From: Candidatus Pacebacteria bacterium UBA6180
GTDB taxonomy: Bacteria > Patescibacteriota > Microgenomatia > UBA1400 > PJMF01
Direction of reading: 5' to 3'
Assembly (NCBI GenBank): GCA_002422165.1
Contig: DITQ01000008.1
Span: forward strand, 125,082 to 189,081
DNA: 64,000 bases
Part shown: positions 44,988-48,389 of the stretch, piece after piece
Numbering within the stretch: the stretch's first letter is position 1
Layout: each line of letters opens with the position of its first letter
Position numbers and translations under genes: made by a program
The notes under the pieces: model-generated
The model's input: only the letters and a program-made list of their open reading frames with translations
The model's database searches: none
Told to the model about the DNA's origin: nothing

Positions 44988-46385
44988 TTAAGCAACCTTG
45001 ATCCCCAATTCTTTGAGCTGTTCTACACTAACTTCGCTGGGCGCCTCCATAATGGAGGTGTGACCAGTCGAATTCATCGGAAAAGCAATTGTTTCCTTGA
45101 GAGAAGTTTCGCCAGCAAGCAACATCACTAGACGATCAAGTCCGAGAGCAATGCCTCCGTGGGGCGGAGTACCAAGCTTGAAAGCCTCTAGCATGTGGCC
45201 TATGCTTGCTTCGATTTCCTGGTCAGAGTAACCCATAATTTTAAATGTTTGCTTGAGCACTTCTGGTTCGTGAGCGCGGATGCTGCCACCGCCAGCTTCG
45301 TAGCCATTGCAGACCAGATCGTACTGAGCGGTAATAATCTTGTCGATGTTCTCGCCAGCTAGATGGTCAGCAAGTGACTCATCGATGGGGCGGGAAAAAG
45401 GGTTGTGAGTGAAGGTCCAGCCACTCTTACCGTCGCGCACTTCGGCAATGTCTTTTTTATCGACTTTTTTGAAAAATGGAAAACGCACTACCCAAGCGAA
45501 AGCGAGCACGCCAGCTGCTTTCTCTTCTTGCGAGCGCAGGTCGAACTTGTCGGCGCCGTGCTGGGCGATGGCATCTTCATAATTGATGACGGGGAAATTT
45601 TCTTGCTGGAGCTGGCCACCAACTTTCTTGACCGCGTTTTTGACGATTTCTTCGACGTGCGCCATCAGTTCCTCCTGAGTGACGAAGCTCATCTCGAGAT
45701 CAAGCTGAGTAAATTCAAAACCGCGATCAGCTCGCAGATCTTCGTCTCGGATACAACGAGCAAACTGATAGTAATTCTCTACACCAGCAGTCATCAAGAG
45801 CTGCTTATACTGCTGCGGACTCTGCGGCAGGGCATAAAATTTACCCGGGTTGAAACGCGAAGGGACGATGAAGTCCCGAGCGCCTTCCTTGGTGGACTTG
45901 GTCAACATCGGAGTTTCGACTTCGGTGAAATCTTTTTTTTCGAGCTGTTCACGCAGCGCCTGATAAAACTTGGAGCGCAGACGCACAATTTTTTGCATCC
46001 GTTCTCGACGCAAGTCGAGGTAGCGATACTTGAGACGCATTTCCTCGTTGACCTCGCGGCCGTCGCCTTCCACGAGAATCGGTAGCTCGGCTGACTTATT
46101 GAGGATTTGGTAGCTTTCGACAAAAATTTCGATGCTGCCAGTTGGTAAATTGGGGTTGACGGATTTCTCTTGGCGCTGATTAATGACACCAATCAACTCG
46201 ACCACTGACTCAGTGCTTAAGTCGCTCAACTTGCCTTGGATGCCCACTGCTTGAATTTTACCAGTGCGGTCACGCAGGTCGATAAAAGTGACCTTGCCGT
46301 GATCCCTTTTGGAATCAACCCAGCCACAGAGGCGGACGGTTTGGCCAATTTGCGCTAGAGTGTCGAGGACGAGAGTGCGGTGCAT
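44988..46385 (-). CDS. aspS: Aspartyl-tRNA synthetase, short form lacking the bacterial GAD insertion
   Basis: Class II: RYLDLR, FYALPQSPQQYKQLLM (AspRS QSPQ motif), FRDEDLRADR, TPPHGGIALGLDRLVMLL; 465 aa. Confidence 0.85.
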   Translation of the reverse strand: MHRTLVLDTLAQIGQTVRLCGWVDSKRDHGKVTFIDLRDRTGKIQAVGIQGKLSDLSTESVVELIGVINQRQEKSVNPNLPTGSIEIFVESYQILNKSAELPILVEGDGREVNEEMRLKYRYLDLRRERMQKIVRLRSKFYQALREQLEKKDFTEVETPMLTKSTKEGARDFIVPSRFNPGKFYALPQSPQQYKQLLMTAGVENYYQFARCIRDEDLRADRGFEFTQLDLEMSFVTQEELMAHVEEIVKNAVKKVGGQLQQENFPVINYEDAIAQHGADKFDLRSQEEKAAGVLAFAWVVRFPFFKKVDKKDIAEVRDGKSGWTFTHNPFSRPIDESLADHLAGENIDKIITAQYDLVCNGYEAGGGSIRAHEPEVLKQTFKIMGYSDQEIEASIGHMLEAFKLGTPPHGGIALGLDRLVMLLAGETSLKETIAFPMNSTGHTSIMEAPSEVSVEQLKELGIKVA

Positions 46386-46396
46386 AGATGAGGAAT

Positions 46397-46402
46397 ATTA
46401 TA
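46397..46402 (-). promoter_or_regulatory. Perfect TATAAT -10 hexamer 11 nt upstream of the aspS ATG (minus strand)
   Basis: Minus-strand reading cccTTATAATattcctcatctATG. No SD between it and the start, implying a near-leaderless aspS mRNA. Confidence 0.35.
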
Positions 46403-46478
46403 AGGGAGAAGGTGGGGAAAAGGTAGAGGAGGTGGGGAAAGATTCACCCCGACCCTTACGGGTCGGGGGGGTTGGAGG

Positions 46479-46583
46479 CTATCGGGGGCGATCAGGGCAT
46501 TTGCTTGACTTGTGGTCTCCCCCACAATGAATGCAAACACTTTCACACACCCAAATGACCAAACTTAAAATTAAGTTTTTCAT
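46479..46583 (-). CDS. Small Cys-rich peptide (34 aa), hypothetical
   Basis: Minus strand AAAGGAGGcctaaaaATG: strong SD with a 7-nt spacer. Peptide MKNLILSLVIWVCESVCIHCGGDHKSSKCPDRPR*. Followed by a perfect 9-bp GC hairpin with a GTAA loop. Below the track size cut-off. Confidence 0.45.
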   Translation of the reverse strand: MKNLILSLVIWVCESVCIHCGGDHKSSKCPDRPR

Positions 46584-46744
46584 TTTTAGGCCTCCTTTCT
46601 TTAGGATGTCCTTCCTTGCGGAAGAAACTCCCCTCGAGTACTGAAGCGCAGGCGCCTCAGCCCCTGGGGGGATTCCTCAATCTTCGAAATTCAAAATCTG
46701 AAGAATCCACCCTGGAGAAAAAACCTTTTTAATGTGCCCTAAAA

Positions 46745-46790
46745 CAAAAAATCCCGCTTATCTAGGCGGGGTTTAGTTTTTTTTGCTTTT
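46745..46790. terminator. Bidirectional intrinsic terminator-like hairpin (CCCGC-ttatctag-GCGGG) flanked by an A-run and a T-run
   Basis: Stem 46752-46756 / 46765-46769. T-rich tract tttagttttttttgcttttttct follows on the plus strand; an A-run upstream gives a U-tract on the minus strand. Confidence 0.55.
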
Positions 46791-47148
46791 TTCTGTTACG
46801 CAACTACAACACCCCGCAAATCCTTGCGCAAAAAGGCGACAATAAATCTGAGGTGATAATTACTTGATAGCATGGGGTTTATTATAAGAAACACTCATAA
46901 TATTGCAAGTCGCAATTTTTGCATGTGTTAGCTTACTCTTCATCTTGCCCTGATTTTTTCTTTTGCGCTATCTCATCTTTTTCTCTACGTTTCATGTGGC
47001 AACGACTATCGTGGGGCTTGAGAGATTTAATATATAGTCAATAAACTATCCTCATCTCCAGAATAAAGATTTCTAAGCTCATCAGGAATCATCCTCTCAG
47101 CCTCAACAGCGCTAGGAGTAGACCATCTTTTTTCCACATACTAAGATC

Positions 47149-47176
47149 AAAAAACCCGCCTCTCTTTGGACGGGTG
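47149..47176. terminator. Terminator-like hairpin (CCCGCC...GACGGG) with flanking A-run and T-rich tract
   Basis: Folds best on the minus-strand RNA (CCCGUC-caaagaga-GGCGGG + UUUUUU). On the plus strand there is one C.A mismatch followed by a U-rich tract. Confidence 0.45.
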
Positions 47177-47240
47177 TTCCTATTTGTGTTTGTTTAATTT
47201 ATATTTTTACAACCAATTTCGCACCAGCTGTTTTTTGCTT

Positions 47241-47269
47241 TGCAAAAAGCAGAGAGCAGAAATATAATC
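47241..47269 (+). promoter_or_regulatory. Sigma70-like promoter TTGCAA-17nt-TATAAT for the hydrolase gene
   Basis: TTGCAA at 47241-47246 and TATAAT at 47264-47269. Predicted TSS near 47276, ATG at 47283, no SD, so a short-leader mRNA. Confidence 0.55.
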
Positions 47270-47282
47270 AGCCTAGCAAAAA

Positions 47283-48389
47283 ATGCTCAAATTATTTCTC
47301 TCTATTTTTATTTTAATCTCTATCAGTAGTTTGTCTTTCGTCCTTGGTCATTTTTATGACAAACTAGCCAAGCTACCAACTACACCTCATTTTTTTCAAG
47401 TGCAACCCACTCCCAAACCGCTGCCCTTGCTTGCTTACACGATTGAAAAGCTGAGTCAACAAGAAGTCAAGGCCACTTCCCCCCTCCAAGTCGAAAAACT
47501 TCTCAATCACGACCCTATCGCCAACCTCTACACTTTGCTTTTTACCTACCAAAGCCAGGGAAAACAAATTTCTGGCGCCCTCAACCTCCAGTTGGATGAG
47601 GCGACTACTGCCAGCCCAAGCGCCATGCCTGTCATTCTCATGTTGCGCGGCTATGCGCCTCTCGAAGTTTACTATTCAGGCATAGGCACCAAAAGCGCCG
47701 CTAGTGTTTTCGCTCAGGCAGGCTACGTCACTCTGGCGCCAGATTTCCTAGGCTACGGCGAGAGCGATCCTGAGCCAGACGATACCTGGGAAGCACGCTT
47801 TATCAAGCCTCTTAATATTCTGGATTTGCTGGCCACGCTACAAAAATTCCCCATTCTCGATCTAAGCAAAATCGAGGAGTCTCCCCTCAAATCAATTTCC
47901 CTAGACCCTGCGCACCTCGGTGTTTGGGCCCACAGCAATGGTGGCCAAATTGCAGTCACCACTCTGGAGATTCTTGGCCAAAATCTACCCACCACCCTCT
48001 GGGCGCCAGTTTTGGCGCCTTTTCCTTATTCGATTCTCTACTTCAGTGATGAATATGAGGACGAGGGCAAAGAAACTCGCAAGTATGTGGCGCTGTTTGA
48101 AGCCGACTATGATGTCTTCGATTTCTCTCTGACTCGCCACCTTGATCGCTTGCATGGACCCATCCAAATTCACCACGGCGGTCGCGATGACGCTGCCTTA
48201 CTTAGTTGGAGCGAAGAGTTTTTGGCCAAAGTCGATTTGGAAAATCAGCGCCGAGCGACAGCGAGCGCCTTGACGGAGGAATTGGAAATCAAGCTGTATC
48301 GTTACCCAAGCGCCGACCATAATTTGCAACCCAATTGGAATGAAGCGATTCAGAGAGATTTGGGGTTTTTTGCGGAAAATCTTAACTAA
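47283..48389 (+). CDS. Secreted alpha/beta-hydrolase fold protein (putative esterase/peptidase)
   Basis: Signal-peptide-like N-terminus; GYVTLAPDFLGYGES; nucleophile-elbow-like WAHSNGGQIAV; C-terminal ...HHGGRDD... acid/His region. Confidence 0.6.
   Translation: MLKLFLSIFILISISSLSFVLGHFYDKLAKLPTTPHFFQVQPTPKPLPLLAYTIEKLSQQEVKATSPLQVEKLLNHDPIANLYTLLFTYQSQGKQISGALNLQLDEATTASPSAMPVILMLRGYAPLEVYYSGIGTKSAASVFAQAGYVTLAPDFLGYGESDPEPDDTWEARFIKPLNILDLLATLQKFPILDLSKIEESPLKSISLDPAHLGVWAHSNGGQIAVTTLEILGQNLPTTLWAPVLAPFPYSILYFSDEYEDEGKETRKYVALFEADYDVFDFSLTRHLDRLHGPIQIHHGGRDDAALLSWSEEFLAKVDLENQRRATASALTEELEIKLYRYPSADHNLQPNWNEAIQRDLGFFAENLN

Follow-up and report, generated by a model that had tools for sequence, protein, structure and literature searches.

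The 897-bp gap at positions 46386–47282 of the window (the whole stretch of 64,000 nucleotides from Candidatus Pacebacteria bacterium UBA6180 that was analysed) is, with somewhat better than even confidence, a compact, lineage-specific micro-gene cluster on the aspS strand and not spacer DNA. The gap is flanked by a divergent alpha/beta-hydrolase gene and aspS, and the minus strand between them carries five elements: a frameshifted orphan gene; a sigma-70-like promoter with a 25-codon ORF and a terminator, together termed unit 1; a two-hairpin leader RNA, termed motif B; a 34-aa ORF with the spacing of a CCHC zinc knuckle; and a terminator-like hairpin with the −10 box of aspS. These elements exist and are conserved, with covariation, and a coding signature is present in the ORFs. 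Our reading of the whole, which we moderately favour, is that of an attenuator-gated micro-gene cluster.

Organization of the gap upstream of aspS

The preliminary description of this DNA had presented the region as a non-coding island of about 900 bp. The size was correct: no other gap between long ORFs in the window is as large, the next one, of 418 bp, containing a tRNA. The statement that it holds no ORF of more than 60 aa is not literally true, because positions 46309–46546 are overlapped by two mechanical ORFs (63 and 73 aa); both straddle the aspS start and are without support. The term 'non-coding' had to be abandoned, as the stretch carries a frameshifted small gene, a conserved 25-codon ORF and a 34-aa gene, the first two of them in the AT-rich part (46800–47150) that had been described as free of ORFs. 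This part (38.5% GC, compared with 42.8% for the window) is indeed bracketed by terminator-like hairpins, at 46749–46774 (bidirectional) and 47175–47154 (minus strand). The small RNA suggested between them survives in part: a short promoter-to-terminator transcript is predicted there, but the conserved leaderless ORF and the attenuator-type alternative structure speak against a plain sRNA. The GC-rich part (46590–46700, 53% GC), noted earlier for its hairpins, contains a conserved RNA structure with strong covariation. Promoter-like sites are found in the gap above chance (8 versus 1.6 expected).

A matching order of elements upstream of aspS was observed in loci L001, L004, L006–L010, L013, L033, L088, L091, L092 and L097 of related genomes. 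The link to aspS partly reflects sampling, because all but four of the relatives were fetched via aspS. These four (L088, L091, L092 and L097) are the only genuine unit-1 loci from a pattern scan of metagenomes, which returned 26 loci, 22 of them chance matches in unrelated coding DNA. In agreement with the earlier failure to match tmRNA, RNase P, SRP or 6S motifs by eye, Rfam searches of the whole window at gathering thresholds, and of the gap, L001 and L008 in E-value mode, gave no family that explains any part of the region; the sub-threshold matches were terminator-driven and belonged to the Trp, Phe, Leu and Thr leaders, rnk, rimP and similar families. A Pfam search of the small proteins gave nothing significant, and the AspRS of the window, looked up by exact match, had no record.

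The 34-aa zinc-knuckle gene

The 34-codon ORF (46479–46583, minus strand) was located with the sequence reported earlier, and the Shine-Dalgarno (SD) sequence claimed for it, AAAGGAGG (46591–46598, minus strand), does lie 7 nt before its ATG. This is the sole intergenic occurrence of GGAGG-N4-10-start in the window; most window genes have no SD, and every cassette ORF in the relatives has one. Sequence comparison identifies the ORF as a real, conserved gene. The motif C-x2-C-G-x2-H-x4-C-P has 11 exact matches in 1.75 million six-frame residues, all of them syntenic. In the comparison with related genomes that the preliminary description had proposed, 11 loci (about 9 distinct genomes) share the knuckle with no change in its Cys/His spacing, and the invariant residues are encoded by varied synonymous codons, which fits zinc binding. 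The micro-protein is most likely a small protein that binds nucleic acids and one Zn, the latter through the putative ligands C17, C20, H24 and C29. Conservation is confined to the 14-residue knuckle, the flanks on both sides being variable, and the family ranges in size from 21 to 50 aa. The homologues in L006–L008, L013 and L092 contain a CPxCG half-site. In L009 and L097 the knuckle is lost and the two sequences differ by a frameshift; the cassette ORFs turn over quickly. Of the roles considered for the peptide at the outset, zinc binding remains the likely one in view of the invariant Cys and His residues, and a membrane role is not supported, as only the window and L004 have the hydrophobic N-terminus, the other homologues having Lys-rich N-termini or hydrophobic C-termini.

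The 34-aa protein has no Pfam match, and a profile of the knuckle family found no match in a collection of 5.8 billion proteins. The nearest solved motifs are the knuckles of eIF3g (CRLCGNDHMTMNCP) and Mit1 (CRCCGIKHLPAHCP) (PDB 2MJC, 4U1E, 6ZU9 and 5IKF), in which the spacing C-x2-C-G-x2-H-x4-C-P is identical; the PDB matches cover 15–18 residues at E values of only 0.003–0.02, and the Pfam eIF3g matches score 11.5–15.1 bits against a cut-off of 24.4. The basic sequence context of the 34-aa protein resembles that of RNA-binding knuckles. In contrast to eIF3g and Mit1, the protein is bacterial and the knuckle makes up essentially all of it, and the likeness is likely a case of convergence. The canonical zf-CCHC family (PF00098) has the spacing C-x2-C-x4-H-x4-C, whereas that of the 34-aa protein is C-x2-C-x3-H-x4-C, and hmmscan gave no PF00098 match even at E ≤ 10. 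Brz of Halobacterium salinarum, a small CPxCG zinc-finger micro-protein of haloarchaea (PMC2253796), is likewise very small and basic, with one zinc site of the C(P)xCG type (putative in the 34-aa protein) and an intergenic position beside a gene that it may influence. However, Brz is archaeal and has a different second half-site (PMC2253796), and no homology to the 34-aa protein was detected.

Downstream of the ORF, a 9-bp GC hairpin with a GUAA loop is followed by UGAAUCUUUCC (together 46436–46468, minus strand), and the cassette thereby ends in a terminator-like way, although the U-tract is weak in the window. This hairpin had been noticed before; its position is 46447–46468, 10 nt past the stop codon, and not 46450–46476. 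In all genomes each cassette ORF is followed by a GC hairpin of 7–13 bp that differs in sequence and mostly has a U-rich tail. Directly 3′ of the stop codon of the 34-aa ORF lies CCUCC (46474–46478, minus strand), for which the MFE and the centroid structure alike predict pairing with the SD of that ORF, and which also begins the terminator hairpin in many homologous cassettes. Further on, the TATAAT previously noted before aspS (46402–46397, minus strand) is its −10 box, 11 nt before the ATG; its position is conserved in the relatives, and aspS has no good −35 element.

These features bear on two other readings of the ORF, both rejected on the pattern of conservation. The first is that of a type I toxin with a structured 5′ UTR, SD sequestration and control by an antisense RNA. 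Its hydrophobic N-terminus, the very stable fold of the leader with the 34-aa ORF (z = −6.97) and the predicted long-range SD:CCUCC pairing would suit such a toxin, and a plus-strand promoter-like site (46542–46571) together with the bidirectional terminator at 46749–46774 would yield an antisense RNA. However, that promoter-like site lies within non-conserved coding sequence, and the hydrophobic segment, of no more than about 13 residues, is not conserved; the homologues are Lys-rich and soluble-looking, with nothing but the knuckle in common, and we regard a toxin as very improbable. The second reading, a precursor of a ribosomally made, modified peptide (RiPP), had been raised in the preliminary description and is suggested by the small size and Cys content of the ORF and by its variable N-terminal 'leader'. 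The variability affects both sides of the core, and the core contains His, Gly and Pro in a metal-knuckle spacing as in solved zinc knuckles. In addition, the neighbouring genes are aspS, TrkH, alpha/beta hydrolase and RmuC, with no gene for a modifying enzyme, transporter or protease nearby, and there is very little to be said for this reading.

A covarying leader RNA in front of the 34-aa gene

The 34-aa gene is preceded by motif B, a two-hairpin 5′ leader of 91 nt (46624–46714, minus strand; covariation, model R1). Its first hairpin, P1, is a plain AU-rich hairpin of 15 bp, and the second arm is composed of P3 (CCCC/GGGG), an internal loop and P2 (CUGAGGCGC/GCGCUUCAG), the latter being the helix noticed in the GC-rich part at the outset. 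Of the 29 pairs, 20 show compensatory changes, and 93% of cells are paired, a result reached in 0 of 500 shuffles, with slid controls at 33–58%. The helices persist despite drift of the sequence, and the internal loop (UGUGG / UUUCGA) is also conserved. In the sequences searched, model R1 matches solely before small SD-led ORFs upstream of aspS, in 14 loci (about 12 genomes) that have one or two copies each, and no family of Rfam 15 matches motif B at or above its gathering threshold. Between motif B and the SD, the window has the GNRA-capped hairpin CUUCC-GCAA-GGAAG, found where it had been reported (46611–46624, minus strand). It is a lineage-specific insertion, absent from most homologues (alignment A1); in L007 another small hairpin takes its place.

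Motif B is most likely a cis-acting operator of the micro-protein that would control translation or stability. In this respect it resembles the leader operators of ribosomal proteins, which are also structured 5′ leaders before genes of small basic proteins, with drifting sequences and retained helices; unlike them, motif B has no match above noise (L20 and S15 at E of about 0.01), and the encoded protein is not a known ribosomal protein. An alternative that we consider improbable is that motif B is not a protein operator but a riboswitch sensing a ligand (a metal, e.g. Zn2+), or a tRNA-sensing element, with the micro-protein genes under its control. The strong covariation and conserved internal loop would be in line with this, as would the putatively zinc-binding ORFs downstream of most copies. 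A CCCUU segment can moreover pair with an upstream or a downstream AAGGG, as an extension of P1 (about 70% of cells) or within P3 (about 88%), which suggests a two-state switch. Against such a sensor, the loop sequences of the paralogous copies c1 and c2 differ, and c2 precedes Lys-rich ORFs without Cys. The consensus structure does not sequester the SD, and no conserved expression platform, by SD masking or by a terminator, is present in motif B. Its distribution is also very narrow, at about 12 genomes, and matches to Rfam or to T-boxes are lacking.

Two more specific assignments of motif B were tried and dropped. A T-box or tRNA mimic would require features that were not found: there is neither a specifier nor a GUC loop, UGGC is not retained in the c2 copies, and the T-box family RF00230 gave no match in the gap at E ≤ 10, nor in L001 and L008 at E ≤ 1. 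The P3/P2 hairpin does not serve as a second terminator, as A's separate the U-run from the stem and the U-run is missing in several copies.

Unit 1: an apparently leaderless ORF followed by a terminator

Unit 1 spans positions 46908–46745 of the minus strand. The promoter scan placed a sigma-70-like promoter, TTGCAA-16 nt-TATAAT, at 46881–46908 (minus strand), and the ATG of a 25-codon leader ORF, MLSSNYHLRFIVAFLRKDLRGVVVA (46796–46873, minus strand, stop included), follows 7 nt past the −10 box. An equivalent promoter is found in all relatives, with the ATG 5–11 nt past the −10 box, and this spacing suggests that the unit-1 mRNA is leaderless and starts at or next to the AUG. The leader ORF is intact in 11 close species, where six sense codons and the stop codon vary only synonymously; in the 21-aa group, variable sites are distributed 7/7/13 over the three codon positions, an excess at the third. 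More distant species have homologous ORFs of 20–29 codons (about 17 loci), so that the ORF is kept in about 28 loci altogether, with an invariant ATG. The peptides have no run of a single regulatory amino acid, and no run is common to the loci; the sole theme that they share is a hydrophobic block of F, I, L and V followed by K/R. Autoregulation of aspS by the sensing of Asp or Asn codons was considered and rejected, the Asp at codon 18 not being conserved and Asn near the N-terminus being common but not universal.

The unit ends with an intrinsic terminator, CCCCGCC...GCGGG + AUUUUUU (46745–46771, minus strand), which was scored as bidirectional (46749–46774). In 23 loci the terminators consist of a GC stem and 5–8 U. 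The terminator of unit 1 is strong (6–7 U), which would also suit a gene standing on its own. What follows it in the window is motif B with the 34-aa ORF, and the promoter scan found no promoter-like site between the terminator and the ORF; in distant loci a downstream ORF begins 1–77 nt after the terminator. Unit 1 sits before other, unrelated small ORFs in L003 and distant species, and the second cassette copies have no unit 1 ahead of them. L033 is without unit 1 and has a consensus TTGACA-16-TATAAT at the corresponding place.

Competing pairings in unit 1

Two mutually exclusive pairings were identified in unit 1. Region 1, UAUCACCUC (46850–46858, minus strand), comprises codons 6–8 of the ORF and pairs with region 2, UGCGGGGUGUUGUAGUUG (46801–46818, minus strand), to form a predicted anti-antiterminator; across loci region 1 lies in codons about 4–13. 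The 1:2 helix has 9 bp, with 92% of cells paired and compensatory changes at 3 pairs (slid controls for the whole 1:2 structure, 36–53%) and a pairing energy of −15.8 kcal/mol. The palindrome UUGCGCAA is invariant in its loop. Alternatively, region 2 pairs with the 5′ arm of the terminator and bases upstream of it (region 3), a candidate antiterminator. This 2:3 pairing is 95% pairable in the close clade, where it shows no covariation because the terminator never varies there; L001 and L010 have an A-C mismatch. Across 23 Patescibacteria loci the pairing follows the species-specific terminator sequence: cognate 2:3 duplexes have a mean energy of −17.1 kcal/mol, compared with −12.2 kcal/mol for non-cognate ones (0 of 20000 permutations; mean z = −4.5), and the cognate terminator is the best partner of region 2 in 12 of the 23. 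The stop codon of the leader ORF is 2 nt past the end of region 2 in the window and between −13 and +11 nt from it in 20 of 22 loci.

From this architecture we infer a leader-peptide attenuator of the trp type with ribosome-gated read-through. A terminator lies downstream of the ORF, the mutually exclusive antiterminator shows covariation, and the 5′ strand of 1:2 lies inside the ORF. Two hallmarks of such attenuators were not found, namely a cluster of codons for one amino acid and a match to a curated Rfam leader, the best scores being 29.7 bits for Phe_leader (gathering threshold 55), 25.3 for Leu_leader (50) and 25.3 for Trp_leader (41).

A different account, which we hold to be rather unlikely, is that unit 1 is an independent sRNA, or a dual-function sRNA with a 21–25 aa peptide, that always terminates; the cassette would be expressed from an unrecognised promoter, and the complementarity of region 2 to the terminator would serve folding or stability. 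In its favour, the strong terminator is invariant, L003 and distant species have unit 1 but no motif B, and the palindrome in the 1:2 loop could be a seed or a protein-binding site. The motif GCGGGG is also kept in two different reading frames and is therefore under RNA-level constraint. However, the 2:3 complementarity reaches 5′ of the terminator stem and co-varies with it across species, the signature of an antiterminator, which a simple sRNA would not need. The tie between the stop codon and region 2, the start of a gene so shortly past the terminator in distant loci and the lack of a promoter-like site before the cassette in the window also argue against independence.

The attenuator reading of unit 1 can be set beside the known leader-peptide attenuators (trp, pheA, leu, thr, his and pheST; RF00513, RF01859, RF00512 and RF00506). 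Both have a short ORF, an intrinsic terminator and a competing antiterminator, with a competing segment within the ORF and a stop codon at which a terminating ribosome would mask region 2. These leaders are also the only near-misses in Rfam, at 20–30 bits, far below the gathering thresholds. Unit 1 differs from them in having no run of a single amino acid, in its apparently leaderless mRNA, in preceding orphan micro-protein genes in place of a biosynthetic operon and in its Patescibacteria host. In mycobacteria, leaderless polycysteine short ORFs act as cysteine-responsive attenuators (bioRxiv 10.1101/834739). They share with unit 1 a leaderless short ORF as the first cistron and its use, proposed in the case of unit 1, as a translation-dependent attenuator of downstream genes, but their signal is defined by consecutive Cys codons, whereas unit 1 has no Cys run and an explicit terminator/antiterminator, and there is no sequence relationship between the two.

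A frameshifted orphan gene upstream of unit 1

Between unit 1 and the hydrolase gene lies a frameshifted copy of an orphan family of small proteins of 66–70 aa (46933–47137, minus strand), identified by homology to syntenic ORFs. Intact ORFs occur at the syntenic place in L001, L004, L005 and L033, and the family motif reads ..TPTRTAVEKFT..GWLxCLLKxQxPHDSSRxERR... Positions 47031–46936 of the window are 47% identical to the L004 protein over 32 aa (E = 7e-6), and the frame is broken at a TATATAT run near 47030. The copy is probably decayed, or else mis-assembled. The family comprises 7 clusters only and has neither a Pfam match nor a name. Next to it, a terminator-like hairpin, ACCCGUCC...GGCGGGU followed by U6 (47146–47175, minus strand), has 7 pairs and a TTTTTT tail. 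Its counterpart in L004, ACCCGCCC..GCGGGTTTTT, has the same relative position and immediately follows the RmuC stop codon. A second, weak match of model R2 in the window (47282–47143, 33 bits) corresponds in position to this RmuC terminator of L004 and was rejected as a copy of unit 1, as it has no ORF and its similarity is restricted to an A-rich spacer and the terminator.

A frameshifted ORF of this kind, together with the fast turnover of the cassette ORFs and the loss of the knuckle in L009 and L097 with their mutual frameshift, could be taken to mean that the whole island is decaying junk, made of pseudogene remnants and chance hairpins. The knuckle is under purifying selection, compensatory changes affect 20 of the 29 pairs of motif B, and unit 1 is conserved across distant species; the covariation and codon data largely refute decay as an explanation, and we give it next to no credence.

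Proposed mechanism and significance

In the mechanism that we propose, transcription would start at the unit-1 promoter (46908–46881), and the mRNA would begin at or next to the AUG of the leader ORF. Four regions would then compete for pairing: region 1 in codons 6–8, region 2 at the 3′ end of the ORF abutting the stop codon, region 3 in the 5′ arm of the terminator with its upstream bases, and region 4 in the 3′ arm. If the ORF is not translated, 1:2 would form and then 3:4, and transcription would end at 46745; a ribosome that reaches the stop codon would cover region 2, with termination as well. A ribosome slowed in the middle of the ORF, on the hydrophobic F/I/L/V block, would instead melt 1:2 and leave region 2 free to pair with region 3, so that the polymerase would read through. 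The read-through RNA would carry the 91-nt motif B, as probable operator, and the SD-led zinc-knuckle gene, and would end at the GC hairpin, some transcription possibly continuing into aspS, for which there is just a −10 box.

A broader joint reading is offered tentatively, as a possibility. Unit 1 may belong to a hitherto undescribed class of attenuators, spread across Patescibacteria, that sense the ribosome on leaderless transcripts, responding to generally slowed elongation (e.g. shortage of host-supplied hydrophobic amino acids) and not to one amino acid, and gating a fast-evolving cassette of zinc-finger or Lys-rich micro-proteins. Motif B would be a new class of riboregulator (protein operator or riboswitch), and the module would be inverted in the lineage of the window, where read-through would also feed aspS.

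Patescibacteria (Candidate Phyla Radiation) are mostly uncultured, and to our knowledge almost nothing is known of their gene regulation; a literature search on this group brought up no work on leaders, leaderless translation or small zinc proteins. The region provides three testable objects: a compact terminator/antiterminator switch on a leaderless mini-ORF with cross-species covariation; a structured RNA of 91 nt, not in Rfam, whose covariation is unusually clean; and a zinc-knuckle family of 21–50 aa not found among 5.8 billion proteins. Should the attenuator fail, the corrected annotation of a supposedly empty region would remain. If it works as proposed, it would be a case of ribosome-coupled attenuation in ultra-small symbionts whose mRNAs mostly lack an SD, and metatranscriptomes could then report the physiological state of Patescibacteria.

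The gap upstream of aspS

The gap between aspS (44988–46385, minus strand) and an alpha/beta-hydrolase gene (47283–48389, plus strand) spans 897 bp (46386–47282). No larger gap between long ORFs is present in the window; the second largest (418 bp) contains a tRNA that is the window's sole Rfam match. In the gap itself no Rfam family reached threshold, and the sub-threshold matches were driven by terminators. Mechanical ORF calling gives two ORFs, of 63 and 73 aa, that overlap its aspS-proximal end, and the TrkH and RmuC genes sit outside the aspS/hydrolase pair. The window belongs to a Patescibacteria/CPR genome of the Microgenomates-'Pacebacteria' kind: its AspRS is 84–91% identical to those of MAGs so named, some of whose record titles are unreliable. 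A length of 465 aa and the Pfam result (anticodon-binding OB fold and class II core within a single continuous match of 326 residues) mark this AspRS as a short form.

The comparison set was built on 80 aspS loci of species-representative genomes. Almost all loci compared were obtained via aspS, and only four real pattern-scan matches are independent of this choice. In blastn, eight of the closest relatives shared the segment at about 46918–46673 as conserved DNA upstream of their aspS, and in tblastn the Cys-rich tail of a 34-aa ORF (46479–46583, minus strand) was conserved even without DNA conservation. When the relatives' aspS upstream regions were read, one common architecture became apparent on the aspS strand. 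The sequence does contain the features of the preliminary description: the 34-aa ORF with its SD, the hairpins, both terminator-like sites and the TATAAT. The GUAA hairpin exists as well, but at 46447–46468 rather than at 46450–46476.

A stretch first described as AT-rich and ORF-free is mostly accounted for by a small, probably decayed gene (element 1; 47137–46933, minus strand), recognized by homology to intact ORFs of 66–70 aa at the syntenic place in the related loci L001, L004, L005 and L033 (motif ..TPTRTAVEKFT..GWLxCLLKxQxPHDSSR..). The C-terminal half of the window copy matches the L004 protein (E = 7e-6, 47% over 32 aa) and is out of frame with an N-terminal 36-aa ORF, the frame breaking near 47030 within a run of TATATAT. 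The protein collection holds only seven clusters of this family, with no Pfam domain and no name. Upstream of this gene, a hairpin with U6 (47175–47154) is the positional counterpart of the RmuC terminator of L004. The RmuC (minus) and hydrolase (plus) genes are convergent and overlap by 4 nt (48386–48389); since this nearest minus-strand terminator is 1.2 kb off, RmuC transcription may run antisense across the hydrolase gene. The hydrolase promoter (TTGCAA-17-TATAAT; 47228–47268, plus strand) overlaps the inverted repeat CTGTTTTTTGC-TTT-GCAAAAAGCAG. The same block of about 50 nt lies directly upstream of aspS, facing it, in L001 (4836–4884) and L010 (4754–4805), and may be a shared promoter/operator module.

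A putative zinc-knuckle cassette

The motif C..CG..H....CP of the 34-aa ORF has 11 exact matches in the 1.75 million six-frame residues of all sequence examined, and all 11 are syntenic. Its invariant Cys, Gly, His and Pro residues are each encoded by several synonymous codons, which shows selection at the protein level. The flanks are unrelated among lineages: only the window and L004 have a hydrophobic N-terminus, L001 and L033 have a hydrophobic C-terminus, and in the other homologues the flanks are Lys-rich, so the initial reading as a small membrane protein is unsupported. The protein has no Pfam match, and its knuckle family has no member in the protein collection. Among solved sequences, the eIF3g and Mit1 knuckles come closest, with identical spacing and marginal E-values; the likeness to eIF3g-type knuckles is in spacing, and that to haloarchaeal CPxCG micro-proteins, e.g. 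Brz, in size and genomic position (PMC2253796).

The GGAGG-N7-ATG of the ORF is the sole intergenic instance in the window. In every genome, every cassette ORF is followed by a GC hairpin of 7–13 bp (element 5) that differs in sequence and mostly has a U-rich tail, which is weak in the window. The aspS −10 box lies downstream of this hairpin, 11 nt before the ATG, with no recognisable −35 element. Between hairpin and box, a C/U-rich direct repeat (UUUCCCCACCUCCUC / UUUUCCCCACCUUCUCCC; 46404–46440, minus strand) contains an anti-SD-like CCUCC, and similar CU-rich tracts occur at that place in L004 and L033. The first cassette ORF lacks the zinc knuckle in L009 (3276–3345) and L097 (3222–3300), which differ by a frameshift in an A-run; the leader RNA thus persists through a rapid turnover of cassette ORFs.

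The leader RNA of the cassette

This leader RNA, motif B (element 3; 46714–46624, minus strand), was defined by an alignment of 15 copies from 10 genomes. It has two arms, one formed by P1 (15 bp) and the other by P3, an internal loop and P2, the last being the CUGAAGCGC...GCGCCUCAG pairing noted at the outset. The GC-rich sequence initially called structured is a conserved RNA structure, with 93% of cells paired and compensatory changes in 20 of 29 pairs. Slid controls gave 33–58%; the observed value was matched by none of the shuffles on four of five measures and by 3/500 on the fifth. A search of 0.87 Mb with a covariance model (R1; E-values rough), covering the remainder of the window too, found motif B only before small SD-led ORFs upstream of aspS, in one or two copies per locus. 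The RNA of leader and ORF (46745–46440) is far more stable than shuffles (z = −6.97, 0/100), and the GNRA hairpin at 46611–46624 is a window-specific insertion. For the CCCUU strand of the motif, which reads CCCC in the window, two alternative AAGGG partners are available, one upstream and one downstream, which hints at two states; no conserved SD-masking or terminator platform follows it.

Second, paralogous copies in L006 (4646–4823), L009 (3393–3570), L013 (3089–3266) and L092 (1200–1380) precede a conserved Lys-rich ORF of 15–18 aa (MKKDKKKKKGHRNKKGNK), which has an SD and a terminator hairpin of its own. The ORF after the second copy in L001 and L010 is a CxxC...CxxC zinc ribbon of 27–30 aa.

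An attenuator-like unit upstream of the cassette

In unit 1 (element 2; 46908–46745, minus strand), a TTGCAA-16-TATAAT promoter and, after 7 nt, the ATG of a 25-codon ORF are followed by an A-rich spacer and then by a strong terminator. In 11 close species the ORF is intact, with an ATG start and no indels. In a seven-species subgroup, six sense codons and the stop show synonymous-only changes, and the three codon positions have 7, 7 and 13 variable sites. The motif UGCGGGGU is retained in two subgroups in two different reading frames, which indicates that the RNA itself is also constrained. Region 1 (codons 6–8) and region 2 (UGCGGGGU) form a 9-bp helix that is 92% paired with three compensatory pairs, as against 36–53% in slid controls for the whole structure, and the 5′ arm of the terminator is also complementary to region 2.

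A second covariance model (R2; E-values rough) extended the set by weaker homologues at about 17 more distant loci, almost all of them just upstream of aspS on the opposite strand. Each has a TTGACA/TAnAAT-type promoter, an ATG 5–11 nt past the −10 box, a 20–29 codon ORF, an A-rich spacer and a terminator, whose stem sequence varies from species to species. In a cross-species test the ORF 3′ end paired far better with the 5′ arm of its own terminator than with those of other species (means of −17.1 and −12.2 kcal/mol; 0/20000 permutations as good; mean z of −4.5 vs shuffles). Across unit-1 loci, region 1 falls within codons about 4–13, and in 20/22 the stop codon lies −13 to +11 nt from the end of region 2. 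Two unit-1-like attenuators stand in tandem in L068 (4205–4356 and 4774–4914, minus strand), with a different ORF after each.

Judged by sequence, unit 1 follows the four-region scheme of trp-type attenuators, on an mRNA that is apparently leaderless, the start site being inferred from the consensus boxes. Its architecture is like that of leader-peptide attenuators, but it fits neither their curated models nor their codon runs: unit-1 leader ORFs contain no run of a single regulatory amino acid, and what they share is a hydrophobic block (F/I/L/V) with K/R after it. For a leaderless version, mycobacteria offer the closest precedent with their polycysteine short ORFs (bioRxiv 10.1101/834739). 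For Patescibacteria, literature searches turned up no papers on leaders, small zinc proteins or leaderless translation.

Proposed mechanism and orientation of the module

No promoter-like site lies between the unit-1 terminator and the 34-aa ORF in the window, and in L033, where unit 1 is absent, a perfect consensus promoter takes its place. Unit 1 is therefore proposed as promoter and attenuator of the zinc-knuckle cassette. Ribosome slowing mid-ORF would free region 2 and block terminator formation, and the polymerase would then read through motif B and the zinc-knuckle gene and perhaps reach aspS. The role of motif B is the weakest link of this proposal, with protein operator, stabiliser and riboswitch as candidates.

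In distant species the module faces the other way, ahead of other small ORFs and the hydrolase gene, and the segment with unit 1 and small ORFs was evidently inverted in the window's clade to face aspS. In L020, L028, L034, L036, L019 and L003 the opposite strand, about 100–1700 nt upstream of aspS and divergent from it, carries unit 1, followed by small orphan ORFs (a 'MSPAQ..' family of 55–67 aa and zinc ribbons) and the alpha/beta-hydrolase gene.

The cassette micro-ORFs have strong SDs, in contrast to the long genes of the window, of which about 47/56 have no SD-like tetramer ahead of the start and many have a −10-like TAnnnT box ending 5–14 nt before the ATG, which makes leaderless starts plausible. 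None of the 54 GGAGG sites in the window precedes the start of a long gene. Taken with the scarcity of SDs and the boxes near ATGs, this suggests that the genome relies mostly on leaderless or very short-leader mRNAs.
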